A stretch of 64,000 nt of DNA from Chloroflexota bacterium (GCA_040902225.1 JBBDXT010000007.1:449112-513111); one strand, 5' to 3'. Shown: positions 14,583 to 52,334, counted from the stretch's first letter. Numbers and translations are program-made. Notes: generated from the sequence alone by a model not told the origin.

Positions 14583-14795
14583 CTAGGCCCGTATCTTGTG
14601 GCGCACTCCGACCACGACCAAGATGCCTCCCGCGACAATCAGACCCACCCCGACGACATTGAAGGCAATCGTCCCGATCGTCTCGCAGGCCCGACTGTCG
14701 GACTCGCTGAAGCAGGACTGAGCCTGCGGTGCAACGATCAGGGCAGCGATGCCAACGGCGATCAGAAATGCGCCGAGCCAGAGCTTGGCTGTCAT
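14583..14795 (-). CDS. small two-TM membrane protein (paralog A)
   Basis: The called ORF is 14583..14882, but the likely start is MTAKLW at 14795. TM1, then loop APQAQSCFSESDSRACETIGT, then TM2. Paralogous to the adjacent 14806..15069 ORF. Confidence 0.4.
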   Translation of the reverse strand: MTAKLWLGAFLIAVGIAALIVAPQAQSCFSESDSRACETIGTIAFNVVGVGLIVAGGILVVVGVRHKIRA

Positions 14796-14805
14796 CTCGG
14801 CGAGT

Positions 14806-15069
14806 CTAAGGACTCGTGTTGCGTCGGGATCGTCCGCTGCGCCCGGATTGCCGAGGAGGGCGCTCCTCGGTCGGCGAGCCACGCAGCGCCAGCACGATGG
14901 CCGCAGTGGCGACCAGGGCCAGACCCACGACCTTCAGAATGATCGTGCCGCCTGTCTCGCACGCGGTGCTGTCGAAGTCCATGACGCAGGACTGCGCCTG
15001 CGGAGCAACGAGCAGCACTGCAAGGCCGAGCACGATCAGAAGAATTCCCAGCCAGTGCCACCTGGTCAT
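14806..15069 (-). CDS. small two-TM membrane protein (paralog B)
   Basis: MTRWHWLGILLIVLGLAVLLVAPQAQSCVMDFDSTACETGGTIILKVVGLALV... Shares the APQAQSC...DS.ACET.GTI loop motif with paralog A. The start codon overlaps the GGDEF gene stop (ATGA). Confidence 0.4.
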   Translation of the reverse strand: MTRWHWLGILLIVLGLAVLLVAPQAQSCVMDFDSTACETGGTIILKVVGLALVATAAIVLALRGSPTEERPPRQSGRSGRSRRNTSP

Positions 15070-33370: not shown

Positions 33371-34075
33371 ATGCGGCTTCCGTTCTTCCCGCTCCACCTC
33401 GTCCTCTTCCCGCATCTGCCACTGCCGCTCCACATCTTCGAGGAGCGCTATCGGGCCATGACCCACGACCTCCTGGCCGATGGCTCCCCGTATGCCGGCC
33501 GCTTCGTGATCAGCAGCGGTGGCGACGATGACGCGCCGGAGGGCTCGGTGGGCACCGTGGCCGAGGTGCGCCGCGCCGAGCGATTCGCCGACGGGCGCTG
33601 GGCGCTGGTGGTGGTCGGGGCCGAGCGCGTTTCGCTGGGTCCGGTGGATCGGTCCGGGACCTACGCGCTGATCGAGGTCCAGCCCCTGCCGGAATCGGTG
33701 GGAGACGCCGATACCGCGGGTCGGCTGCTCCCGGAAGTGCAGGCAGCACTGGATGCCTACCTCGACACGGTGAAACGCTTCGTGGCGTCGGCTGCGTCTG
33801 TAGGGCGAGAATCACAGGAGATCACCGACGTGGCCGCTTCCCTCGACGAGGTGCTCAAGCCGATCCGGCTGCCGGACGACCCCCTGGCCGCCAGCTACGC
33901 GGTGGCCGGGGTGCTGCAGATCGAGCTGAACCGCAAGCAGCAGCTGCTGGAGCTGCCCGACGGTGCGAGCCGCCTCGAAGCTGAGCTCAGCCTGCTGCGC
34001 CGTGAAGCGCGCCTCCTCGCTGATGGCGCCATGCCGCCGATCAGTCGCGACGACCTTCGCTACAACCCTAATTGA
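33371..34075 (+). CDS. LON N-terminal (substrate-binding) domain protein
   Basis: MRLPFFPLHLVLFPHLPLPLHIFEERYRAM matches the Lon N-domain start. No ATPase or protease domains. 234 aa. Confidence 0.7.
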   Translation: MRLPFFPLHLVLFPHLPLPLHIFEERYRAMTHDLLADGSPYAGRFVISSGGDDDAPEGSVGTVAEVRRAERFADGRWALVVVGAERVSLGPVDRSGTYALIEVQPLPESVGDADTAGRLLPEVQAALDAYLDTVKRFVASAASVGRESQEITDVAASLDEVLKPIRLPDDPLAASYAVAGVLQIELNRKQQLLELPDGASRLEAELSLLRREARLLADGAMPPISRDDLRYNPN

Positions 34076-35214
34076 TCGCCATGACCCCCCGCCGCCTCGC
34101 CGCCGGCCTGGCGGTCACGCTGCTGATGGCCGCCTGCGCTCCCGGCGTCAGCCCGACGCCCAGTGCGAGCGGGAGTGCCAGCCAGCAACCCTCGCCGATC
34201 GAGACGCCATTCGGCACCATCCTGCCGAGCGAGGTCGAATCGTCCGCGCCGAGCGTGACCGCCGGCCCGTCTGGAACGACCTACACGGTGCGTGGGGGCG
34301 ATACGCTCTCGTCGATCGCCCGGTCCTGGGGGACGACCGTGCAGCAGCTCCAGGCCTGGAACGCCAGCTCCCATCCCTCGCTCATCAGCGATCCGAACAC
34401 GCTCCAGGCCGGCTGGATCCTGGTCGTGGCGGGCGACCCGGGGGCGACGCCGCTGCCCACCGCAGCCCCCACCGGCGCGCCGACCCCCAGACCGACGCCC
34501 GCACCCAGCGGATGCCGGGCGGGCAACCGCGTGGCGGCCGGCACGCAGCAGACCTTCAGCACGATCCCGAACGCCGGGCACGGCGTGGCCCTCACCCTGG
34601 ACATGGGTGGCCGGCTGGAGCCCGGGATCGACATCCTCAACCTGCTGATCGCCAACCACGTGTGCGTGACGATCTTTCCGACCGGGGCCATGGCGCAGAC
34701 CGCCCAGGGCAAGCAGGTGATGGCGTTGATCAAGGCCCACCCGGAGCTGTTCGAGATCGGCAACCACACCATGCACCACTGCGACCTGGTGCGCGGCGGA
34801 GGAGGCTCGCCGACCACCGCGCCATGCGCCGGTGGGGCGCCGACCGCCGACTTCATTCGCACGCAGCTGACCGATGCGGCGGCCATCCTGAAGCAGCTCT
34901 CCGGTCAGCAGCCGGTCCCGTACTGGCGCCCGCCATATGGATCGGTGAACGCAGCGGTGCGCGACGCCGCGGCATCGGTGGGGTACACCAAGACCTTCAT
35001 GTGGGACATCGATACGATCGACTGGAAGCCGATCTCCGACGGCGGCCCGACCGCACAGCAGATCGCCACCAAGGTGATCAGCAACGCGCGCGACGGATCG
35101 AACGTGCTGATGCACCTGGGCGGATATCAGACGCTCAAGGCACTGGAGATCATGATCCCCGGCCTGCGCGACCGTGGCTTCCTGCTGACGAGCCTCTCCG
35201 ACCTGCTGAACTAG
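34072..35214 (+). CDS. LysM-domain polysaccharide deacetylase (NodB/CE4) lipoprotein
   Basis: Lipobox LLMAACAP, LysM (YTVRGGDTLSSIARSWGTTVQQLQAWN), Pro/Thr linker, then a CE4 domain (HGVALTLDMGG, GNHTMHH, PPYG). Confidence 0.7.
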   Translation: MIAMTPRRLAAGLAVTLLMAACAPGVSPTPSASGSASQQPSPIETPFGTILPSEVESSAPSVTAGPSGTTYTVRGGDTLSSIARSWGTTVQQLQAWNASSHPSLISDPNTLQAGWILVVAGDPGATPLPTAAPTGAPTPRPTPAPSGCRAGNRVAAGTQQTFSTIPNAGHGVALTLDMGGRLEPGIDILNLLIANHVCVTIFPTGAMAQTAQGKQVMALIKAHPELFEIGNHTMHHCDLVRGGGGSPTTAPCAGGAPTADFIRTQLTDAAAILKQLSGQQPVPYWRPPYGSVNAAVRDAAASVGYTKTFMWDIDTIDWKPISDGGPTAQQIATKVISNARDGSNVLMHLGGYQTLKALEIMIPGLRDRGFLLTSLSDLLN

Positions 35215-42937: not shown

Positions 42938-43524
42938 GCGGGAGCGCCGTCGCTCAGCAGCACCGCCTCGCCATTCAGGATCTGGAGGTCGAAGGAGATC
43001 GGCCCGGGGGCGACCCGCGTGGCCAGCACGGGGATGGTCAGGGTGCCCCCCACCAGGAGGGGTCCCCAGCCCAGCGAAGTGGTGCCCGCAGGCTCGCCGT
43101 GCTCGCCCGGTCCCTCCACCCACTTCGTCCAGTCCTGGACGAGGGGATCGCCTCCCTCGCGGATGCGCTGCGCGGACGGCTGGAACGGGGCGAGGAAGAT
43201 CGTGTCGCGAACCTCGGTCGGCCAGCGCAGGACCAACTCGGGCACCATCGCCTGGCCGAGGTTGGTGACGACGATGACCAGCCGCCCGGAGGCACCTGCC
43301 GCTACCTCCACCGTGACCTCGTAGGTGATCGGGGTCGAATCCGTGGCTGTCGGCGCCGGCAGGGTCAGGCGTCCGCTGTCGCTTGGGCTCGGCTCGGCGG
43401 TCGCGCTCGGTCGGGTCGATTCCGAAGGCGAGGCGCCAACGGAGGGCGACGGGCTGGACGCTGGGCTACGGGTGGTCTGGAGGGAGCAGGCGGCCAGCAG
43501 CACGGCAGCGGCAAGGGGAGCCAT
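42913..43524 (-). CDS. putative lipoprotein
   Basis: The likely start is MAPLAAAVLLAACS (lipobox), followed by a Ser/Pro/Thr-rich linker. The called ORF runs to 43650. Confidence 0.4.
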   Translation of the reverse strand: MAPLAAAVLLAACSLQTTRSPASSPSPSVGASPSESTRPSATAEPSPSDSGRLTLPAPTATDSTPITYEVTVEVAAGASGRLVIVVTNLGQAMVPELVLRWPTEVRDTIFLAPFQPSAQRIREGGDPLVQDWTKWVEGPGEHGEPAGTTSLGWGPLLVGGTLTIPVLATRVAPGPISFDLQILNGEAVLLSDGAPAWLKVTVP

Positions 43525-43670
43525 GCACCTCCGCCGGGTGCCGAGACGGGATCGGATCGGTTGTGCGACGCTCACGGCGGCCTCGCCTGCGTAGTCATCG
43601 GCGCGTGGCCGGCGGCCAGGCAGGGCCATGGTATGCGAGCGGCACCTCAACCGCTGCTACGATCGAGGAG

Positions 43671-44111
43671 ATGGCCGACACGTCCGCTCCCGACCGCGAG
43701 CCCAGCCCGCCAACGCCGATGCCGATCGGCGTTCGGCTCTGGTTCATCTGGGCATTCGTGCTGCTGGCCGGCACCGGAATCTTGCTGCCTCGCATCATCG
43801 AGTTCGTCGACTTCAGCGAGCGGGCGCCCTTCAGCCTGCTGGGCATCTTCATGATGCTGGAGCTGGCCGCGCTCCTGTTCGCGATCACCGTGGCCATGCA
43901 GCGCAAGCGGATCGGTCATCGCTTCGCGATCGGGATCGCCATCCTGGCCGCCCCGATGCTGGCCGGGCTGCCGCCGATCGTGCTCGACTTCCCGCCCGAG
44001 GCGGTCGCGGGCTGGCAGGCGCTCTTCATTCCCGTCGGCCTGCTCATCAGCGTCGTGCTCGTGATGGCACTGCTGCGGCCCGGTTCACGAGCCTACTTCA
44101 GCGAGGACTGA
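43671..44111 (+). CDS. membrane protein, unknown function
   Basis: The likely start is MADTSAPD, with a gaggag RBS. 4 predicted TM helices. Confidence 0.35.
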   Translation: MADTSAPDREPSPPTPMPIGVRLWFIWAFVLLAGTGILLPRIIEFVDFSERAPFSLLGIFMMLELAALLFAITVAMQRKRIGHRFAIGIAILAAPMLAGLPPIVLDFPPEAVAGWQALFIPVGLLISVVLVMALLRPGSRAYFSED

Positions 44112-44141: not shown

Positions 44142-45197
44142 GTGACCACCGCCGCAGCGCCGCCGCGCACCATGCGTGCGCTCGCCAAGACCCGTCCTGA
44201 GCCCGGCCTCGAGCTCGTGCAGCGGCCCGTCCCGGTGCCCGGTCCCGATGACGTGCTGCTCAAGATGGAGGCGGCCTCGATCTGCGGCACGGACCTGCAT
44301 CTGTTCCGCTGGGATCCGTGGGCGAGCGAGATCGTCAAGCCGCCGACCATCCTGGGTCACGAGCTCGCCGGCCGCGTGGTGGCCACGGGCGCGGGCGTGA
44401 CCCGCGTGGTGGACGGCGACCTGGTCGGTGTGGAGAGCCACATCGTGGACGGCACCTGCGCGCAGTGTCGCCGCGGCGATCGGCACCTGTGCCGCAACCT
44501 GAAGGTGATCGGGGCGCACGTGGACGGCGGCTTCGCCGAGTACGTGGTCATCCCCGAGGCGAACGCCATCGAGTCCAACGGCCTCGACCCCGCGGTGGTG
44601 GCTCTGCAGGAGCCGATGGGCAACGCCGTGCATGCCGCCTTCGTCGAGCCGATCGAGGGGCGAACGGTGCTCGTCACCGGCTGCGGCCCCATCGGCCTCT
44701 GCGCGGTGGGAATTGCCCGAGCTGCCGGGGCTGCCATGGTGATCGCCACCGACACGGAGGAGTATCGGCTCGAGCTGGCCCGCGGCATGGGCGCCGACCT
44801 GGCACTCGACGCGCGCGACCCGGGGACGGTTGATCGGATCCGGGCAGCCACCGATGGCGATGGGGTCGAGGTGGTGCTCGAGATGAGCGGGGCGCAGGCG
44901 GCGCTCGACCAGGCCCTGGCGGCGATCACCCGCGGCGGGCGGATCAGCCTGCTCGGCATCTTCGGGGAGCCGGTCCGCGTCGACCTGTCCGACTTCGTGA
45001 TCCAGAAGGGCCTGCGCATCTACGGCATCTACGGCCGCCGCATCTACGACACGTGGGAGCGAACCCAGGCGCTGCTGCGCTCCGGCGCGCTTGACGTCAC
45101 GCCGATCATCACCCATCGATTCGACCTCGCCGACTGGGAGCGCGGCTTCGACCTGATCGCCTCCCGACACGCCGGAAAGGTAGTGCTCCTGCCATGA
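44142..45197 (+). CDS. tdh: L-threonine 3-dehydrogenase (zinc-dependent)
   Basis: GHELAG, structural-zinc Cys cluster ([12 protein letters not shown]), and GCGPIGL Rossmann motif. Followed by kbl. Confidence 0.85.
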
Positions 45198-46411
45198 CCG
45201 ATGCCGTCACCGCCCGCTCTCGCAACCCCCTCGCCTTCCTCGATGCGGAGATCGAGGACCTCAAGGCCAAGGGCCTGTACCGGCGCCTGCGGGTGGTGCA
45301 GAGCGAGCAGCGCAGCCGCTGCATGATCGACGGGCGCGAGGTGATCACGCTGTCGAGCAACAACTACCTCGGCCTGAACACGCACCCGCGCCTGCGGGAC
45401 GCGGCGATCGAGGCGGTCCGGCGCTTTGGGGCCGGGTCGGGAGCAGTGCGCACCATCGCCGGCACCATGAGCCTGCACGAGGAGCTGGAGCGCCGCCTGG
45501 CCGAGTTCAAGCAGGTGCCCGCGGTCCTCACCTTCCAGTCCGGCTTTACGGCCAACACCGGTGTGATCCCGATCGTGGCTCCGGAGGGCGCGGTGATCGT
45601 CTCCGACGCACTGAACCACGCCAGCATCATCGATGGCATCCGGCTGACCAAGGCGGAGCGCAAGGTCTTTCCGCACGCCGACATGGACGGGCTGCGCGCG
45701 GTGCTGGCCGAGGTGCGAGCGGCGCCCGGCGGAGCTGACCGAACCGTCCTCGTCATCACCGACGGCGTCTTCAGCATGGATGGCGACATCGCCCGACTGC
45801 CCGAGATCGTCGGGGCCGCCGAGGAGGCCGATGCGATCGTCTACGTCGACGACGCGCACGCGTCAGGCGTGCTCGGTCGCAACGGGCGGGGAAGCATCGA
45901 TCACTTCGGCCTGCATGGCCGGGTGCAGATCCAGGTCGGGACCCTCTCCAAGGCGATCGGGGTGCTGGGCGGATACGTTGCTGGCAGTCAAGCGCTGCGC
46001 GACATCCTGATCCACCGTGCGCGCCCGTTCCTCTTCTCGACGTCCCATCCACCAGCCGTGGCGGCGGCGTGCCTGGCGGCGATCGACGTCCTGGAATCGG
46101 AGCCGGAGCTGATCGAGCGGCTTTGGCAGAACACCCGCCTCTTCAAGGCGGGCCTGGCGCGCCTCGGCTTCGACATCGGCGCATCCGAGACACCGATCAC
46201 GCCCGTCATCGCCGGCAGCGGGGCGATGGCCATGAAGCTGTCGGATCGGCTCTTCGAGGAGGGCGTCTTCGCGCAGGGGATCGGCTTCCCGACGGTGCCC
46301 GACGATCGGTCGCGGGTCCGGACCATCGTCACGGCCGAACACACCCACGACGAGCTCGAGACCTGCCTCGCCGCGTTCGAGAAGGTCGGTCACGAGCTGG
46401 CGCTCATCTAG
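45194..46411 (+). CDS. kbl: 2-amino-3-ketobutyrate CoA ligase (glycine C-acetyltransferase)
   Basis: Class II aminotransferase / 8-amino-7-oxononanoate synthase family with a PLP-Lys region ([16 protein letters not shown]). Overlaps the tdh stop. Confidence 0.85.
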
Positions 46412-46427
46412 CCGTCGAAGACAGAAA

Positions 46428-46457
46428 GACGGGGTAGAGGCGAACCTCTACCCCGTC
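46428..46457. terminator. perfect 13-bp stem hairpin (GACGGGGTAGAGG-CGAA-CCTCTACCCCGTC), copy 1
   Basis: It lies between convergent kbl (+) and cassette gene 1 (-), so it is a likely bidirectional terminator. The same element recurs at 47387, 48572 and 49089. Confidence 0.5.
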
Positions 46458-46481
46458 CGGTCGGCTTGCGCCGTTCAAGGG

Positions 46482-47162
46482 CTAGCTGATGCTGCGTCCC
46501 GCCTTGACGTTCGCGTAGGCGAGCGCCCCGAGGGATGCCAGCAGGATCAGGCTGAAGGCGATGGTCGGCAACGGGCTCGAGCCATCGAGTGACTGCGCGC
46601 TGTCGGGCATGCTCCCTCCGGGAGTGCCGGCGCCGCCCTCGACCAACTGGTCGCTTGACTCTTCGCCTGGATCGTCGCCGGACTCGTCGCCGGACTCGTC
46701 GCCCGACTCGGGGACCGACTCAGACTCGGCCTCCAATTCCTCTTCTGCGCCGTCGCAGCCGTTGTCGAAGATCGCCTGTCCGGCGGCATTCCAGTTCAGG
46801 CTGGGATAGCCGGTCAGGGTGACGCCGTCCGAATAGAACGGCGGGACGATGTCGCCCCAGTACACGCCAGCGGCCTTTGCGCCGGGAGACCACACCGGGC
46901 CCGTGTGCTCGAAGAGGTGGTCGCCCTTGCCGTGGTCGTTGCCGTTGTCGCCGTCGACCGAGGCCTCATCGACCGTGACCTTAACGTACGGATTCGTCTC
47001 CGCATGGGTGCGATGGCAGATGGTGACCTTGTGCAGCGGGTCCGGCTTCGTGGCCTGGACCGGAGTCACGAGGTATGACATCGACAGCGCCATTGCGGCT
47101 GTCGCGGCGAGCACAACGCTCAGCCGTGACATCCGTGCCATGGTGAGAGTGCGAGTGTTCAC
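46482..47162 (-). CDS. secreted cassette protein 1: signal peptide, passenger domain, acidic GDES repeats, conserved C-terminal TM anchor
   Basis: GTG start 5 nt after GGAGAT. Signal MNTRTLTMARMSRLSVVLAATAAMALS...VQA, acidic repeat GDESGDESGDD, and C-terminus SSPLPTIAFSLILLASLGALAYANVKAGRSIS. Confidence 0.6.
   Translation of the reverse strand: MNTRTLTMARMSRLSVVLAATAAMALSMSYLVTPVQATKPDPLHKVTICHRTHAETNPYVKVTVDEASVDGDNGNDHGKGDHLFEHTGPVWSPGAKAAGVYWGDIVPPFYSDGVTLTGYPSLNWNAAGQAIFDNGCDGAEEELEAESESVPESGDESGDESGDDPGEESSDQLVEGGAGTPGGSMPDSAQSLDGSSPLPTIAFSLILLASLGALAYANVKAGRSIS
46669..46720. repeat. 12-bp tandem repeat (gactcgtcgccg x about 3.5) encoding the GDES linker
   Basis: Direct reading of 46669..46720. 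Confidence 0.6.
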
Positions 47163-47220
47163 GAGGTATCTCCTAAGACTTCCAGCACCCCTGGCACGCT
47201 ACGGAACACCCGCGCGGCCC

Positions 47221-47277
47221 CCCTGGGGGTCGATATGTCCCGACCCTAACCGGAAGTACTGGGCCTGCCTAGTACCT
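47221..47277 (-). promoter_or_regulatory. conserved cassette 5' leader motif, copy L1
   Basis: ccctgggggtcgatatgtcccgaccctaaccggaagtactgggcctgcctagtacc. Homologous to 48401..48460 and 48921..48976, and partially to 50105..50125. Confidence 0.4.
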
Positions 47278-47386
47278 CCGGATGGGCCTCCGGATGGGTC
47301 CAGTTGAGTGCGGTCCGCAGGTGGGGACTCTGGTCGTTGCGCCCCCGCAACGGATTTCGCGGCGCACGAGCCCGAACACAACAGAA

Positions 47387-47416
47387 GACGGGGTAGAGGC
47401 GAACCTCTACCCCGTC
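47387..47416. terminator. 13-bp stem hairpin, copy 2
   Basis: gacggggtagagg cgaa cctctaccccgtc. Confidence 0.45.
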
Positions 47417-47490
47417 CCTGCCAGGGGGGCTGGCTCAATCGGGGCTGTGCGCGCGGCGCATGCCCGGCTCCGTAGTCTATCCGAATGCTA

Positions 47491-47518
47491 GACAGCCCCC
47501 AGAGGACCGGGGGCTGTC
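47491..47518 (-). terminator. 10-bp stem GC hairpin (GACAGCCCCC-N8-GGGGGCTGTC) 35 nt after cassette gene 2 stop
   Basis: Direct reading. A homologous hairpin lies at 48677..48704 and an identical copy at 49193..49220. Confidence 0.45.
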
Positions 47519-47552
47519 TCGTTCAGGTCGACCGGCTGTCGCCGTTTTCTGC

Positions 47553-48347
47553 CTAGATGCGGCTGCGCACCATCTTGACGTTCGCGTAAGCGAGTGCGCC
47601 GAGGGATGCCAGCAGGATCAGGCTGAAGGCGATGGTCGGCAGCGGGCTGGAGCCGGCTCCGAAGAGCGAGCTATCAGCCGTGCTCTCCTCGGCCGAGAAG
47701 GTGAGGGCAGCGACCGACTGCTCGCCCGACTCAGCCTCGGACTCGGGGACCGACTGCTCCTCGGACTCGGGGACGGACTGCTCCTCGGACTCGGGGACGG
47801 ACTCTTCCTCGGACTCGGGGACCGACTGCTCCTCGGACTCCGACTCCTCAAGTTCGATGAGACAGAACGCGATGTGGCTGATGCTGTCCTCCGAAAGCGC
47901 GAGCAGTCCATCGTCGTGGGCAATGCCGGGACCAGCGAATCCAGCCTGCGCGCCGGTGTAGTCATACACGTTCGAGGCGTTGGTGCCCTTGACGATCACA
48001 TAGGCTGCCAGCCCGCCATCGACGATGAACCAGAAGCTATTGCCGTCGACGGTGATCTCGACGTTGGCCGTTGAACCATCGGGGAGCTCGACGTCGTCAT
48101 CCTGGGTGCCGTCCGGGGTCGAGTCGAACTTCAGCTCGGTGGTACCCTCGGGACACGGAACGTTGCCCCCCGAATTCGACCCCCACTCTTCATTATTAGG
48201 CCCCACCGCGATGGGGAGGACCTCCGGGCCGTCGGCCGGGTCATGCTCGGCCAGCACCGGGCTCATCACCCAGAGCATCGACAGCGCGAGCGCCGACAGT
48301 GCGGCGAGAAGGATGGCGGGCCGCGATGCGGCGGTGCGAGTACTCAC
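47553..48347 (-). CDS. secreted cassette protein 2 (copy A): signal peptide, passenger domain, SEEQSVPE repeats, conserved C-terminal TM anchor
   Basis: The called ORF runs to 48395. The homologous start is GTG at 48347 (AAGGAGA-N9-GTG, reading M-S-T-R-T like gene 1). Signal ...LSMLWVMSPVLA, acidic repeats, and C-terminus SSPLPTIAFSLILLASLGALAYANVKMVRSRI. Confidence 0.6.
   Translation of the reverse strand: MSTRTAASRPAILLAALSALALSMLWVMSPVLAEHDPADGPEVLPIAVGPNNEEWGSNSGGNVPCPEGTTELKFDSTPDGTQDDDVELPDGSTANVEITVDGNSFWFIVDGGLAAYVIVKGTNASNVYDYTGAQAGFAGPGIAHDDGLLALSEDSISHIAFCLIELEESESEEQSVPESEEESVPESEEQSVPESEEQSVPESEAESGEQSVAALTFSAEESTADSSLFGAGSSPLPTIAFSLILLASLGALAYANVKMVRSRI
47737..47850. repeat. 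24-bp tandem repeat x about 4.5 (tcggactcggggacSgactgctcc) encoding the SEEQSVPE linker
   Basis: Direct reading. An identical array lies at 49439..49552. Confidence 0.6.
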
Positions 48348-48400
48348 GATACCGGTCTCCTTTACAGCTCCCCTGGTGCTCGGGCGATAGTCCACCCGAG

Positions 48401-48460
48401 ACCCCCCTGGGGTTAGATCTCTGGCACCCTAGGACGGAAGTACTGTTCCTGCCTAGTACC
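48401..48460 (-). promoter_or_regulatory. conserved cassette 5' leader motif, copy L2
   Basis: cccctggggttagatctctggcaccctaggacggaagtactgttcctgcctagtacc. It contains AGATCT, CCTAGG and AGTACT palindromes. Confidence 0.4.
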
Positions 48461-48571
48461 CCCGGAGGCCATGGTGGTGAGGTCCTGTGGGGTTCGGTGG
48501 CGAGCGGATGCCTTAGGTTGGTGCACCGCTGCACCGGAATCTTGCCCACGCCGGCCGACGACACAACAGAA

Positions 48572-48601
48572 GACGGGGTAGAGGCGAACCGCTACCCCGT
48601 C
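48572..48601. terminator. 13-bp stem hairpin, copy 3 (one mismatch)
   Basis: gacggggtagagg cgaa ccgctaccccgtc. Confidence 0.4.
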
Positions 48602-48749
48602 TCTGCCAGGGGGCTGGATCGATCGGAGCCTGGTGCGTGGCCGCTCAGGCTCCCCTGGAGAGTTGTCCGGACACGAGGCAGCCCCCGCCACACCGGGGGC
48701 TGCCTCCGCTAGCTCAGCTGGTGGTTGTTGACCTGTCTTCTGGCACCCA

Positions 48750-48860
48750 CTACATCGGATGCAAGAAGTAACCGAGAGCGAAGGCGATGATCAGCATCGC
48801 GCCAGCGGTGATGAGGATGCGGCGGGAGAAGATCCCGCCCTTGGCTCTACGAGTAATCAC
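48750..48860 (-). CDS. 36-aa mini-cassette ORF (single-TM peptide)
   Basis: GGGAGG-N8-GTG, reading MITRRAKGGIFSRRILITAGAMLIIAFALGYFLHPM. It has the same M-x-T-R start and the same leader (48921..48976) and hairpin context (48677..48704, 48572..48601) as the large cassette genes. Confidence 0.35.
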   Translation of the reverse strand: MITRRAKGGIFSRRILITAGAMLIIAFALGYFLHPM

Positions 48861-48920
48861 GATAACGGCCTCCCTGGACGTTCCTGCTCCCCCGGTGTTC
48901 AACGCGGTGGTCCACGCAGA

Positions 48921-48976
48921 CCCCTGGGGTTAGATCTCCGGCACCCTAGAACGGAAGTACTGGTCGTGACTAGGAC
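48921..48976 (-). promoter_or_regulatory. conserved cassette 5' leader motif, copy L3
   Basis: cccctggggttagatctccggcaccctagaacggaagtactggtcgtgactaggacc. Confidence 0.4.
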
Positions 48977-49077
48977 CTCCGGGTACCCACGTGGTGGGGT
49001 CTGCTTGGGTCCGGTTGAGACCGGGTGCTTTAGGTTGGTGCGTCGTTGCACCGCAATCTTGGCTGCGCCGGGCCGCG

Positions 49078-50116
49078 ACACAACAGAAGACGGGGTAGAG
49101 GCGAACCTCTACCCCGTCCCTGCCAGGGGGGCTGGCTCAATCGGGGCTGTGCGCGCGGCGCATGCCCGGCTCCGTAGTCTATCCGAATGCTAGACAGCCC
49201 CCAGAGGACCGGGGGCTGTCTCGTTCAGGTCGACCGGCTGTCGCCGTTTTCTGCCTAGATGCGGCTGCGCACCATCTTGACGTTCGCGTAAGCGAGTGCG
49301 CCGAGGGATGCCAGCAGGATCAGGCTGAAGGCGATGGTCGGCAGCGGGCTGGAGCCGGCTCCGAAGAGCGAGCTATCAGCCGTGCTCTCCTCGGCCGAGA
49401 AGGTGAGGGCAGCGACCGACTGCTCGCCCGACTCAGCCTCGGACTCGGGGACCGACTGCTCCTCGGACTCGGGGACGGACTGCTCCTCGGACTCGGGGAC
49501 GGACTCTTCCTCGGACTCGGGGACCGACTGCTCCTCGGACTCCGACTCCTCAAGTTCGATGAGACAGAACGCGATGTGGCTGATGCTGTCCTCCGAAAGC
49601 GCGAGCAGTCCATCGTCGTGGGCAATGCCGGGACCAGCGAATCCAGCCTGCGCGCCGGTGTAGTCATACACGTTCGAGGCGTTGGTGCCCTTGACGATCA
49701 CATAGGCTGCCAGCCCGCCATCGACGATGAACCAGAAGCTATTGCCGTCGACGGTGATCTCGACGTTGGCCGTTGAACCATCGGGGAGCTCGACGTCGTC
49801 ATCCTGGGTGCCGTCCGGGGTCGAGTCGAACTTCAGCTCGGTGGTACCCTCGGGACACGGAACGTTGCCCCCCGAATTCGACCCCCACTCTTCATTATTA
49901 GGCCCCACCGCGATGGGGAGGACCTCCGGGCCGTCGGCCGGGTCATGCTCGGCCAGCACCGGGCTCATCACCCAGAGCATCGACAGCGCGAGCGCCGACA
50001 GTGCGGCGAGAAGGATGGCGGGCCGCGATGCGGCGGTGCGAGTACTCACGATACCGGTCTCCTTTACAGCTCCCCTGGTGCTCGGGCGATAGTCCACCCG
50101 AGACCCCCCTGGGGTT
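49078..50116. repeat. 1039-bp direct repeat, copy B
   Basis: See copy A. Identity ends where 48415 (agatct) and 50117 (catcaagg) diverge. Confidence 0.7.
49255..50049 (-). CDS. secreted cassette protein 2 (copy B, identical to copy A)
   Basis: Its translation is identical to 47553..48347. The 5' leader diverges beyond 50116. Confidence 0.6.
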   Translation of the reverse strand: MSTRTAASRPAILLAALSALALSMLWVMSPVLAEHDPADGPEVLPIAVGPNNEEWGSNSGGNVPCPEGTTELKFDSTPDGTQDDDVELPDGSTANVEITVDGNSFWFIVDGGLAAYVIVKGTNASNVYDYTGAQAGFAGPGIAHDDGLLALSEDSISHIAFCLIELEESESEEQSVPESEEESVPESEEQSVPESEEQSVPESEAESGEQSVAALTFSAEESTADSSLFGAGSSPLPTIAFSLILLASLGALAYANVKMVRSRI

Positions 50117-50245
50117 CATCAAGGAGCCGGAGAATACACGGGAAGTTGTGCGTTGCCTAGTACTTTTGTCGAGTAATTTGCAGAGCGGTGGCGGCTGGTT
50201 GGGTGCGGAGCACAAACGAACGGTGCACGCAGGCACCAATCGTGC

Positions 50246-50890
50246 TCAGCCGGTGCGCCCGCGCGCCTCCAACAGCACCACCTGACTCTCCTCGGGGAGC
50301 GAGGATGGGACGACCACCGCCTTCGGCTGACGGATCGGCTCGCTGACCGCCAGCTCGTGAAGGAAGCGCTCGGGTCCGAGCAGATCCGCTGATGCCCCGT
50401 CCGTGGCGAAGTGCATCGGGATCACGATCTTCGGGCTGATCTGGGCGACGACCTCAGCGGCCTCGGCCGGGCCGATGGTGAAGTTGCCGCCGGCCGGCAC
50501 CAGCAGCACGTCGATCGGTCCGAGCTCTGCGAGCTCCTCCTCGGTGAGCAGATGCCCCAGGTCCCCCAGGTGGCAGACGTGCACGCCGTCCATCTCCACC
50601 GCGAAGATGACGTTCTCGCCGCGCTCGGCTCCGCGCACGCCGTCGTGGAACGAACGAACTGCCGTGATCAGCAGGTTGCGATGCTCGTACTCGCCTGGCC
50701 GAGTCAGCGTCAGCCCGGCGGTGATCGAACGCGTGTAGCTGTGGTCGGCGTGGCCGTGGGAGATCGTCAGCAGGTCCACGTCGTGCTTGCCGGCGACGAA
50801 CCCGGTTGAGGGAGGACAGGGGTCGGTGATGACCGTCGCCTCGCGCCCCTTCAGGCGGAAGCAGGCGCGCCCGTACCAGGTGATCTCCAT
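50246..50890 (-). CDS. MBL-fold metallo-hydrolase
   Basis: HGHADH motif (TISHGHADHS) and downstream His/Asp ligands (HLGDLGH, IPMHF). The likely start is MEITWYGRACF at 50890. Confidence 0.7.
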   Translation of the reverse strand: MEITWYGRACFRLKGREATVITDPCPPSTGFVAGKHDVDLLTISHGHADHSYTRSITAGLTLTRPGEYEHRNLLITAVRSFHDGVRGAERGENVIFAVEMDGVHVCHLGDLGHLLTEEELAELGPIDVLLVPAGGNFTIGPAEAAEVVAQISPKIVIPMHFATDGASADLLGPERFLHELAVSEPIRQPKAVVVPSSLPEESQVVLLEARGRTG

Positions 50891-51086
50891 GGGATGGCCG
50901 ATGCTACTGGAAATGCACGAGCGCCGGTGCCCGCCCAATGACACCGGCGCTCGAAGGAGGGAGGGTGGAGGCGGAAACCCGTTGGTTTCCAACTCGCAGG
51001 GACAACCCTAGGAGCCATCGGTGAATCCCAAAGGGGGGCTTGGCTTAAGAAACCTGAACCTAACGCCGCGTCAGACGGATGCGACA

Positions 51087-52334
51087 ATGCGGCCGATGTC
51101 CTCCCTGGCCAGGCGCCTCGCCGCTCTCAGCGTCCTGCTCCTGAGCCTGGCCATCATCGCGGTGCTGGGGCTGCGCGCGACGGCGATCGGACCCTTCAGC
51201 AGCCCTACGCCCGTAGCGGCGACAGCGACGCCCCAACCTTCCGGGCCGGCCTCTTCGCAGGATCCGCTGACCGTCTTCGGCCACATCGAGGAGCAGGTTC
51301 GCCAGATGCGGGGCCTGCCGGCGGCCGACATCGGGCCCCCGGAGATCATGACCCGGGCCGAGCTGGCGCAGGTCCTGCCCGGCCTGCTCGAGCCGCCGCT
51401 CGACAACGCGACCCTGCGTGCCCTTGGCCTCCTCGACGCCGACCAGGACATCGTGGCGCTGACCGAGGAGCTGTATATCGCCCAGGTGCTCGGCTACTAC
51501 GACTTCGACGCGAAGCAGATGGTGGTGGTGACCGATGCCGGGCTGACGCCCGCGGCGCAGATCACGTATGCCCACGAGTACACCCATGCCCTGCAGGACG
51601 CTGCCTTCGACAGCGGCGCAGCGCAGGAGGCAGTCGCCGGGCAGCGGGATCGGGAGCTCGCCCTGCTTGGGCTCATGGAGGGCGACGCCACCACGGCGAT
51701 GGTGCTATGGGCGATCGGGCACCTCTCGGCCGAGGAGCTGGCGGGGATCACCCAGAGCCCCGTCCCTGACATGAGCGGGATCCCGGCCTGGATGGTCAGC
51801 CTGCTCGAATTCCCGTACCTCTCGGGGGCCGAGTTCGTCGGTCAGCTGTACGCCTCAGGCGGATGGGAGGCAGTGGACGCGGCATATCGCGACCTGCCCG
51901 CATCGACCGAGCAGATCCTGCACCACGATGCCTACGTCGACCACGAGGCTCCGACCGAGCTCGATCCGCTCGACCTGTGGAGCGCCGTCGGAGCGGATTG
52001 GGCGCACGCCTCCGATACGACCCTTGGCGAGGCGTGGATGGCGATCTGGCTGGAGGGGATCGGCGCCAGTCGAACGGCCGCCGACGCGGCGGCGGGATGG
52101 GGCGGCGACCGGTTGACCGTGGCCACCGACGCGGGTGGCAGCTGGGCCCTCGGTTGGCGGATCGCCTGGGATACAGCGAACGATGCCACCGAGTTCGAGA
52201 CCGCCTACGCGGGCGTGCAGTCTGCGCTTCCCTTTGCGACACGGCTCGTCCACGCCTCGGATCGCGAGACGATCGTCCTGCAGGCCTCCTCTGCGGAACT
52301 GCTCGAGACGATCGCAAGCCTGGCGGGCAGCTGA
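51087..52334 (+). CDS. secreted HEXXH-motif protein (putative zinc metallopeptidase)
   Basis: Signal/anchor MRPMSSLARRLAALSVLLLSLAIIAVLG and an HEYTH zincin motif (ITYAHEYTHALQD). Remaining sequence not recognisable. Confidence 0.45.
   Translation: MRPMSSLARRLAALSVLLLSLAIIAVLGLRATAIGPFSSPTPVAATATPQPSGPASSQDPLTVFGHIEEQVRQMRGLPAADIGPPEIMTRAELAQVLPGLLEPPLDNATLRALGLLDADQDIVALTEELYIAQVLGYYDFDAKQMVVVTDAGLTPAAQITYAHEYTHALQDAAFDSGAAQEAVAGQRDRELALLGLMEGDATTAMVLWAIGHLSAEELAGITQSPVPDMSGIPAWMVSLLEFPYLSGAEFVGQLYASGGWEAVDAAYRDLPASTEQILHHDAYVDHEAPTELDPLDLWSAVGADWAHASDTTLGEAWMAIWLEGIGASRTAADAAAGWGGDRLTVATDAGGSWALGWRIAWDTANDATEFETAYAGVQSALPFATRLVHASDRETIVLQASSAELLETIASLAGS

Follow-up and report, generated by a model that had tools for sequence, protein, structure and literature searches.

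A conserved C-terminal module on variable surface proteins of Candidatus Limnocylindria, a candidate lineage-specific anchoring or sorting domain

A 64,000-nucleotide stretch of DNA from a Chloroflexota bacterium (GCA_040902225.1 JBBDXT010000007.1:449112-513111), hereafter the window, holds at positions 46,482 to 50,116 a small cluster of minus-strand genes whose products end in the same C-terminal tail. An initial annotation, made from the sequence alone, described this tail as a tripartite signal of the sorting type outside the familiar classes. Here, we report its structure, conservation, distribution, and genomic setting. The tail is a conserved C-terminal homology domain of fixed length under protein-level purifying selection, and it very probably serves as the membrane-anchor module of surface proteins; that it is a lineage-specific surface anchoring or sorting domain of Candidatus Limnocylindria, working through a dedicated partner, has in our estimate a probability of about one-half.

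Tail-bearing genes in the window

The open reading frame (ORF) listing of the window contained three minus-strand ORFs with the tail, at 46482-47162 (gene C; 226 amino acids [aa]), 47553-48395 (gene B), and 49255-50097 (gene A). Genes A and B each encode 280 aa from the first GTG and 264 aa as called by NCBI (protein P0121, WEB29_11215, on a 629-kb contig, 100% identical to the window protein). All three C termini read SSPLPTIAFSLILLASLGALAYANVK, followed by AGRSIS or MVRSRI, and an acidic low-complexity spacer lies N-terminal to the tail.

Gene C comprises a signal peptide (aa 1 to 37), a small passenger domain with the motif ICH..NPY..DGD.GND.GKGDH, an acidic spacer (46629-46745), and the C-terminal module (46485-46628), which shows column conservation and matched the tail profile at 87.8 bits. 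The computed parts of the module are GTPGGSMPDSA (46596-46628), SSPLPT (46563-46580), the transmembrane (TM) helix IAFSLILLASLGALAYANV (46506-46562), and the basic end KAGRSIS (46485-46505). In the AlphaFold2 (AF2) model, an N-terminal helix and a small domain are followed by disorder at residues 142 to 194 and a helix at 197 to 225.

Gene B probably starts at the GTG at 48347, as in the 264-aa NCBI call, and encodes a signal peptide, a beta-sandwich passenger, an acidic spacer of SVPESEE repeats (47706-47849), a degenerate juxtamembrane block LTFSAEESTADSS (47667-47705), SSPLPT (47634-47651), the TM helix (47577-47633), and the terminal KMVRSRI (47556-47576). Gene A is an identical copy (TM helix, 49279-49335; SSPLPT, 49336-49353), and the AF2 model of their product has strands at 46 to 164, disorder at 165 to 235, and a helix at 236 to 263. 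Both genes lie inside an exact direct duplication of 1,039 bp (47376-48414 = 49078-50116) that takes in the whole 264/280-aa gene and its terminators, so the window holds two independent tail genes rather than the three counted initially. The duplication is either very recent or kept by gene conversion, though it may instead reflect repeat collapse or expansion in the assembly.

Aligned by BLASTP, gene C and gene A/B products matched only in spacer and tail (E value, 1e-16), with no detectable similarity between the passenger cores; the 26 shared tail residues differ by four synonymous and no nonsynonymous changes. Both window proteins begin with a Sec-type signal peptide, and in both AF2 models a folded passenger leads through a disordered spacer to a confidently predicted terminal helix. 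No Pfam family and no informative PDB fold match was found for either window passenger. The tripartite architecture behind an acidic spacer thus stood up to closer analysis, in column conservation and in predicted disorder, on secreted proteins with unrelated passengers. The window proteins themselves depart from the family pattern, with GTPGGSMPDSA in gene C and LTFSAEESTADSS in genes A and B; the latter sequence contains no GTGTP and no P[DN]T (the corresponding residues read TADSS).

Conservation of the C-terminal module

Column conservation was scored over 134 nonredundant tail representatives. In these, the conserved region covers about 55 to 60 residues; the module as a whole is put at about 50 to 60 residues and is of fixed length, with 48 to 49 residues from GTP to the C terminus in 101 of 129 representatives; the tail of roughly 30 residues first proposed is therefore too short. 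The membrane-distal part of the consensus is P-E-[GQ]-S-V-x-[GA]-G-T-G-T-P-x-x-S-x-P-[DN]-T-A, followed by about 10 variable residues and then the helix part, G-x-x-P-[LIV]-[PA]-T-[ILV]-x-F-x-x-x-L-x-x-S-L-G-x-L-A-[YFW]-A-N-V-[KR]-x-x-R-x-R. Conservation in the distal block was 88% for E, 85 to 97% for TGTP, 88% for S, 75% for P, 96% for D/N, 71% for T, and 79% for A. In the helix part, it reached 90% for the T of PLPT and, through the helix and end, 96% (F), 99% (L), 81% (S), 97% (L), 98% (L), 94% (A), 99% (N), 95% (V), and 87% (R). The best-kept helix positions (T, F, L, S/L, L/A, N/V) recur every 3 to 4 residues and hence lie on one helix face, and this level of conservation is far above what hydrophobic anchoring needs.

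The SPLPT motif, initially taken as the signature of the tail, proved not to be family-wide. It is strong in the clade of the window (T, 98%), and elsewhere and in giant proteins it gives way to PLAT, PVAT, LAAL, or SIPVE, while the block GTGTP-xx-S-x-P-[DN]-T-[AS] and the helix persist in members with a decayed SPLPT and are the better-conserved features. An xP[DN][TS][AS] pentapeptide occurs in 83 of the 134 representatives (62%) and the strict form of P-[LIV]-[PA]-T in 55%. At the upstream pentapeptide, position 1 is L in 17 to 20%, P is present in 68 to 75% (50 to 75% over the member sets examined), and T is present in 62 to 71%; the modal forms are QPDTA, VPNTA, IPNTA, and LPNTA, placed 37 residues from the C terminus. 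A trade-off between P[DN]TA and PxPT was weak (odds ratio, 0.47; P = 0.05, by statistics that ignore phylogeny).

Across genomes, identical tail residues were written with different codons in 36% of comparisons, and divergence was 0.42 at third codon positions versus 0.23 at positions 1 and 2. Synonymous turnover beneath fixed residues indicates that the tail is selected at the protein, not the DNA, level.

Distribution, passengers, and family searches

Searches for homologues brought up hundreds of proteins with the tail from soil metagenomes, the named ones assigned to "Candidatus Limnocylindria bacterium" or "Chloroflexota bacterium"; more than 110 homologues of gene C carry the same tail. 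Among 228 proteins retrieved, 219 fit the strict tail pattern, and in 4 others the tail differs from it by one or two substitutions. When 1.84 billion representatives were searched with a tail profile of 44 columns (A1), 166 clusters at 50% identity matched, their lengths ranging from 30 to 1,543 aa; the match ended at the C terminus, or no more than about 10 residues from it, in about 146 of 150 among the matches listed. Three proteins with repeated matches to the first half of the profile (P0330, P0346, and P0365) were set aside as chance similarity to the strands of immunoglobulin repeats. With hundreds of homologues ending in the same way, the sharing of the tail, which the ORF ends and BLASTP had already confirmed, is not due to chance.

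When one genome per species was scanned, 40 loci were identified, nearly all in metagenome-assembled genomes (MAGs) of Limnocylindria or Chloroflexota, and the tail is almost confined to one class, Candidatus Limnocylindria. Loci L002, L004, L023, and L028 came from bins named Gemmatimonadales, Methylomirabilota, Propionibacteriales, and Pleomorphomonadaceae. All four are short contigs on which the array has Limnocylindria flanking genes, and L002 also has the same leader DNA (described below); given these shared features, they are probably binning errors in public MAGs. The GC content of the window (~0.69) is in keeping with the Limnocylindria class average (68.9% GC, 2.39 Mb; PMC10608941).

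After signal peptide, spacer, and tail were trimmed, 375 sampled proteins fell into about 37 BLAST-level passenger groups. Representative passengers matched the Pfam families DUF11, DUF7507, VWA, SpaA prealbumin-like, CARDB, Big_9, and cadherin-like (DUF11-type matches were found, for example, in P0343, a 1,152-aa array protein). Domains of these types are typical of sortase substrates in Gram-positive bacteria. Of 332 full-length members, 287 had a signal-peptide-like N terminus (basic, then hydrophobic). A single tail shared by many passengers of the surface type is the pattern of known sorting signals.

Giant surface proteins of 1,500 to 1,650 aa occupy the same slot in L006, L010, L025, L032, L038, L040, L059, L067, and L083, with the variant tail ..P[DN][TS]A..PISIPVELM..F..SLG.LAFANV.A.RRRR. 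A gene pair for an extracytoplasmic function (ECF) sigma factor and its anti-sigma factor adjoins the giants in L006, L010, L025, L032, L040, and L067; beside these DUF11 proteins, the pair was considered only as a regulator.

The tail is absent from curated libraries and is in this sense new to them. Full proteins, isolated tails, 10 divergent tails, and the consensus were searched against NCBIfam r20 and Pfam with thresholds up to an E value of 10 and gave only noise. Two controls, the protein A tail and a synthetic PEP-CTERM sequence, behaved as expected: the former matched TIGR01167 at 25.9 bits, and the latter matched TIGR02595 at 36.9 bits together with about 15 related C-terminal sorting models. 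About 20 curated C-terminal sorting-domain models, which the controls do match, failed to match the tail, which therefore belongs to no curated family. For the LPXTG model TIGR01167 (cutoff, 15.9 bits), no match was obtained at an E value of ≤10 with full proteins, window tails, the 10 divergent tails, or the consensus; no near-invariant LPXTG-type pentapeptide precedes the helix, the window copies reading MPDSA and TADSS. Pfam gave no anchor-family match for the full proteins or for four divergent tails. The tails did not match the PEP-CTERM models, including those for VPLPA-, IPTL-, and VPDSG-CTERM (TIGR02595, TIGR03370, TIGR04174, and TIGR03778). The best score of any tail, to PGF-CTERM (TIGR04126), was 12.1 bits (E value, 0.12) against a 24.5-bit cutoff and came from one divergent tail, in the region before the helix only. 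The consensus lacks GG at the helix start and lacks Cys, and the hidden Markov models (HMMs) for GlyGly-CTERM and MYXO-CTERM gave no match. The initial exclusion of LPXTG, PEP-CTERM, PGF-CTERM, and GlyGly-CTERM was thus borne out.

Another ORF of the window (14583-14933, minus strand; 116 aa), ending in ETIGTIAFNVVGVGLIVAGGILVVVGVRHKIRA, also has a C-terminal helix and a basic end, with a "TIAF" start; it matched neither the tail profile nor any family.

Leaders, terminators, and neighboring genes

Each tail gene is a separate unit with its own conserved leader and terminator hairpins, all on the minus strand. The conserved 5' leader of gene B (48349-48639), found by nhmmer and alignment, has copies at 47180-47447 (gene C), 48862-49148 (a small ORF), and 50051-50247 (gene A). 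The leader is 200 to 280 nucleotides long, and in other genomes, too, it precedes tail genes (nhmmer E values, 1e-45 to 1e-20). The alignment suggests three hairpins, some with compensatory changes. Its invariant blocks include a GGTGC-N6-GCACC hairpin, with GC-to-UA covariation in 6 of 15 sequences; GGTACTAG.CA...AGTACTTCC; a stem ACCCCAGGGGGG...CC-AGGGGAG around a hairpin with compensatory changes; and then AAGGAGACCGGTATC-GTG. Rfam searches with the whole window and with the cassette region, leader included, gave no match. The leader is a candidate shared promoter/operator or structured 5' untranslated region.

An intrinsic-terminator hairpin, GGACGGGGTAGAGGTTCGCCTCTACCCCGTC plus a T run, lies 3' of gene C (46427-46458; repeat family D6, terminator scan), with sister copies at 47385-47418, 48570-48602, and 49087-49120, and is also kept 3' of tail genes in distant loci. 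The small ORF, 36 codons at 48750-48860 (VITRRAKGGIFSRRILITAGAMLIIAFALGYFLHPM), has its own leader (48862-49148) and terminators and resembles the N termini or signal peptides of two tail proteins from another subfamily, L002 1611-2264 and P0335. It looks like an orphan signal peptide, what is left of a cassette after loss of its passenger and anchor, and is as such a sign of cassette turnover.

For synteny, neighbors were clustered in the 40 genome loci (10 kb on each side; a first set comprised 41 loci, window included), and 80 metagenome loci were added, of which 16 of ≥4 kb, plus L041, were gene mapped. Tail genes form arrays of 1 to 4 (mean, 1.8; genome loci and metagenome loci of ≥4 kb with a classifiable flanking gene), and they constitute a single-locus cassette family. 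Nearly every genome has one tail locus in a conserved syntenic slot, by a restrictive scan pattern that could miss divergent extra copies. The order in the slot is argS, a divergent gene for an Hvo_1808-like HExxH protein, an MBL-fold (metallo-beta-lactamase) hydrolase gene, the array, kbl, tdh, and a gene for a small 4-TM protein. In a second lineage (L014, L017, L019, L021, L024, L027, L031, L035 to L037, and L039), the array lies in another housekeeping context.

In the window, the MBL-fold hydrolase gene is at 50246-50992 (minus strand; Pfam Lactamase_B_3; E value, 2e-49) and borders the array upstream, as it does in 23 of the 41 first-set loci and in most of the longer metagenome loci. 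Beyond it, 51021-52334 (plus strand) encodes a membrane-anchored putative metalloprotease of the Hvo_1808 family with an HExxH..EGDA motif, which matched NCBIfam NF038145 at 155 bits (E value, 4e-45), below the 200-bit cutoff; no Pfam match and no PDB relative was found by sequence. HExxH and EGDA were present in all 17 full-length copies of this neighbor examined, and in 19 of the 41 first-set loci the gene lies next to the array region in divergent orientation. Its product is a putative extracellular zinc protease. On the downstream side, the array is bordered by a kbl-like aminotransferase gene (45194-46411, plus strand; synteny clusters c5 and c2; Pfam Aminotran_1_2 on the L041 orthologue) and, beyond kbl, by tdh (44142-45197; assigned by synteny). 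A small 4-TM protein is encoded at 43383-44111 (plus strand); its real start is probably near MADTSAP, and it belongs to no Pfam or NCBIfam family. It is conserved three genes downstream of the array in at least 15 loci and has the conserved motifs LPRII.FVDFSE[KR]APFSLLGIFMM.EL and, at the C terminus, R.YFSED.

Anchoring, processing, and alternative explanations

The tail has the general traits of a tripartite sorting domain: an extreme C-terminal position; a motif, TM helix, and basic cluster in that order; an N-terminal signal peptide on the same protein; and a single tail shared by many unrelated passenger families (~37 groups). We envisage that a Sec-type signal peptide, recognizable in the sequence, would export the protein and that the 19-residue C-terminal helix would then stop transfer, leaving the Lys/Arg end in the cytoplasm, as the positive-inside rule and the AF2 helix predict. 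The disordered acidic or Pro/Thr-rich spacer would hold the variable adhesin-like passenger off the membrane, presumably displaying it at the surface. A dedicated partner would read the juxtamembrane block (PEGSV-GTGTP-xx-S-x-P-[DN]-T-A ... P-L-P-T) together with the helix face T-F-L-S/L-L/A-N/V. By analogy with characterized systems, the case for recognition by a specific partner is evenly balanced. The preferred partner would be a membrane-associated processing enzyme that cuts close to the site resembling LP[DN]T[AS], where this is kept, and transfers the protein to an acceptor, either wall or lipid. The same analogy makes cleavage by a dedicated enzyme plausible; that the tail proteins are actually cleaved we regard as somewhat doubtful. 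Window proteins, with the site weakened (MPDSA) or lost (TADSS, no GTGTP), may simply stay membrane anchored. Of the distinct processing or anchoring pathway suggested initially, the anchoring half is thus well supported, and the processing half draws on analogy, with no partner enzyme found at the loci.

Several observations weigh against a dedicated processing partner. The putative cleavage motif is not invariant: much of the clade of the window has G or S in place of its T, genes A and B lack the motif, and neither the xP[DN]T[AS]-type nor the PLPT-type motif is universal. Classical sorting signals are dispersed through genomes, and several dispersed substrates per genome were not found here; tail genes number 1 to 4 per genome, at one locus. 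In the few-substrate sortase systems known to us (SrtB and YhcS), the enzyme gene is adjacent. Most neighbors in the loci were judged by motif scan and by similarity of recurrent families rather than by Pfam scans. No TLxTC sortase signature was present in the predicted proteins of the window and about 55 related loci (~0.75 Mb in total), and 15 window proteins compared with Pfam, including all four with multiple predicted TM segments, contained no sortase, exosortase, rhomboid, or CPBP family, in agreement with the initial statement that the window has no visible sortase-like gene. No recurrent candidate enzyme was found within about 10 kb at the ~55 analyzable loci. The initial annotation had named a tail restricted to cassette copies, with no partner enzyme pattern, as the outcome that would count against it; a single-locus array with no enzyme nearby goes part of the way toward that outcome.

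The recurrent neighbors that offer themselves as enzymes are the MBL-fold hydrolase, the Hvo_1808-like metalloprotease, and the small 4-TM protein; the Hvo_1808-family and 4-TM proteins are the only recurrent nonhousekeeping neighbors, all others being syntenic housekeeping genes, and even their link to the array may be mere synteny. The Hvo_1808-like metalloprotease is a speculative candidate for processing; the literature on HVO_1808 found by us concerns a model Tat lipoprotein only and reports no sorting role. Other multi-TM neighbors were discarded as transporter-, kinase-, or glycosyltransferase-like by direct reading, not by Pfam, and literature searches gave no paper tying Limnocylindria to sortases. 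A more specific version of the proposal, a private Limnocylindria pathway serving single-locus hypervariable surface-protein cassettes through an enzyme outside the sortase, exosortase/archaeosortase, rhombosortase, and CPBP/myxosortase families (perhaps an Hvo_1808-type HExxH metalloprotease or an unrecognized membrane protein), we judge unlikely.

The main rival is a plain, uncleaved type I anchor whose helix packs on itself or on a partner: the conserved face (Leu/Ala heptad-like, with Ser and a 99% Asn) would mediate homo-oligomerization or docking, the juxtamembrane block would be a stalk, and conservation among paralogues would follow from tandem duplication and cassette replacement at one locus. 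This reading, which we hold to be a serious contender though short of an even chance, sits well with the 3- to 4-residue periodicity of the helix, with the single locus and low copy number, with the lack of an enzyme gene nearby, and with the visible cassette turnover (orphan signal-peptide ORF, exact duplication); genes A and B, moreover, lack GTGTP and P[DN]T and yet are intact and recently duplicated. What it leaves unaccounted for is the extracytoplasmic block of 30 residues, kept in both sequence and length over class-level divergence and about 37 passenger groups, a constraint that a passive stalk would not need. To our knowledge, every domain of tripartite architecture that has been studied was found to be processed (10.1101/2023.06.07.544157).

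If the tail proteins instead took the ordinary sortase route, with [QVLI]P[DN]T[AS] as a relaxed, class D/E-like form of LPXTG, a housekeeping sortase encoded elsewhere in the genome would process them and link them to peptidoglycan. The modal pentapeptides, 37 residues from the C terminus and ahead of a TM helix and Arg residues, would fit such a route, as would the sortase-substrate-like passenger domains. The host phylum, Chloroflexota, is monoderm (PMC10608941). A LysM plus polysaccharide-deacetylase protein encoded in the window (34072-35214, plus strand) suggests that peptidoglycan is present in the organism, a point relevant to any model of wall anchoring. Against this stand the failure of all tail variants to match TIGR01167, where the protein A control succeeded, and the rarity of Leu at position 1; the failed match and the noninvariant Pro and Thr make the canonical sortase route less likely. 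Between motif and helix there is a long spacer with conservation of its own (PLPT), the helix keeps its sequence, which is unusual for LPXTG signals, and no sortase gene was found near any locus examined. We consider this route improbable. A pure DNA-level effect, in which cassette exchange or gene conversion uses tail, terminator, and leader as homology arms and the protein tail need only be hydrophobic, is the least probable of all. Leader and terminator DNA are kept between genes and genomes, the window has an exact duplication and a remnant cassette, and the array keeps to the same chromosomal slot, all of which such an effect would explain; it is contradicted by the frequent synonymous turnover beneath fixed residues, seen also in the purely synonymous differences between the window tails, and by conservation that is residue specific and periodic.

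A lineage-specific anchoring or sorting domain would be of interest in several respects. C-terminal sorting domains have repeatedly led to the discovery of envelope-processing enzymes, such as sortase, exosortase, archaeosortase, rhombosortase, and myxosortase. The host class is abundant and uncultured in soil and freshwater, with small genomes (~2.4 Mb), and the tail is attached to what appear to be the main variable surface proteins of the organism. A tail profile would annotate hundreds of "hypothetical proteins" as surface proteins and define the surface-exposed proteome of Limnocylindria, and a single hot spot with few substrates offers a clean handle for finding the partner. The cassette layout (constant leader, signal peptide, anchor, and terminator, with a variable passenger in a fixed slot) illustrates how surface proteins can diversify in nature, possibly under pressure from phages or predation.

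Comparison with known systems

One close parallel is with LPXTG proteins and sortase. In both, an N-terminal signal peptide is paired with a motif, a hydrophobic helix, and a basic end at the C terminus, and both occur on adhesin- or pilin-type passengers (DUF11, SpaA, VWA) in monoderm hosts. By eye, the xP[DN]T[AS] pentapeptides of the tail resemble the class D sortase motifs LPDTA, LPDTS, and LPNTA. Unlike LPXTG signals, the tail is unmatched by the HMM, seldom has Leu at position 1, and has neither Thr nor Pro invariant; it carries extra conserved blocks (PEGSV-GTGTP and PLPT) and a helix conserved in sequence, and it occurs in 1 to 4 copies at one locus with no sortase gene found near the tail loci.

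With PEP-, PGF-, IPTL-, and VPLPA-CTERM, the tail shares a Pro motif abutting the helix (P-[LIV]-[PA]-T, sometimes IPTL, visually reminiscent of the VPLPA, IPTL, PEP, and PGF motifs), an Arg-rich end, and a low-complexity spacer N-terminal to the motif. It differs in lacking an HMM match, in a motif that is not the same and not universal, and in a module about twice as long; in addition, no exosortase-family gene was seen near the tail, and the tail genes are not dispersed through the genome. GlyGly-CTERM with rhombosortase and MYXO-CTERM with myxosortase likewise have the tripartite architecture and many passengers to one tail, but the tail has neither Gly-Gly nor an invariant Cys, is unmatched by their HMMs, and had no rhomboid or CPBP gene in view nearby.

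As a locus, the array resembles the surface loci of flexible genomic islands: a fixed slot (MBL-fold gene to kbl) with content that varies between genomes, conserved gene ends, leaders, and terminators, and duplications and remnants. No recombinase or integron-like element was seen at the tail loci, and the array differs from such islands in its unit of exchange, which is a single surface-protein gene with a constant signal peptide and anchor around a variable passenger.

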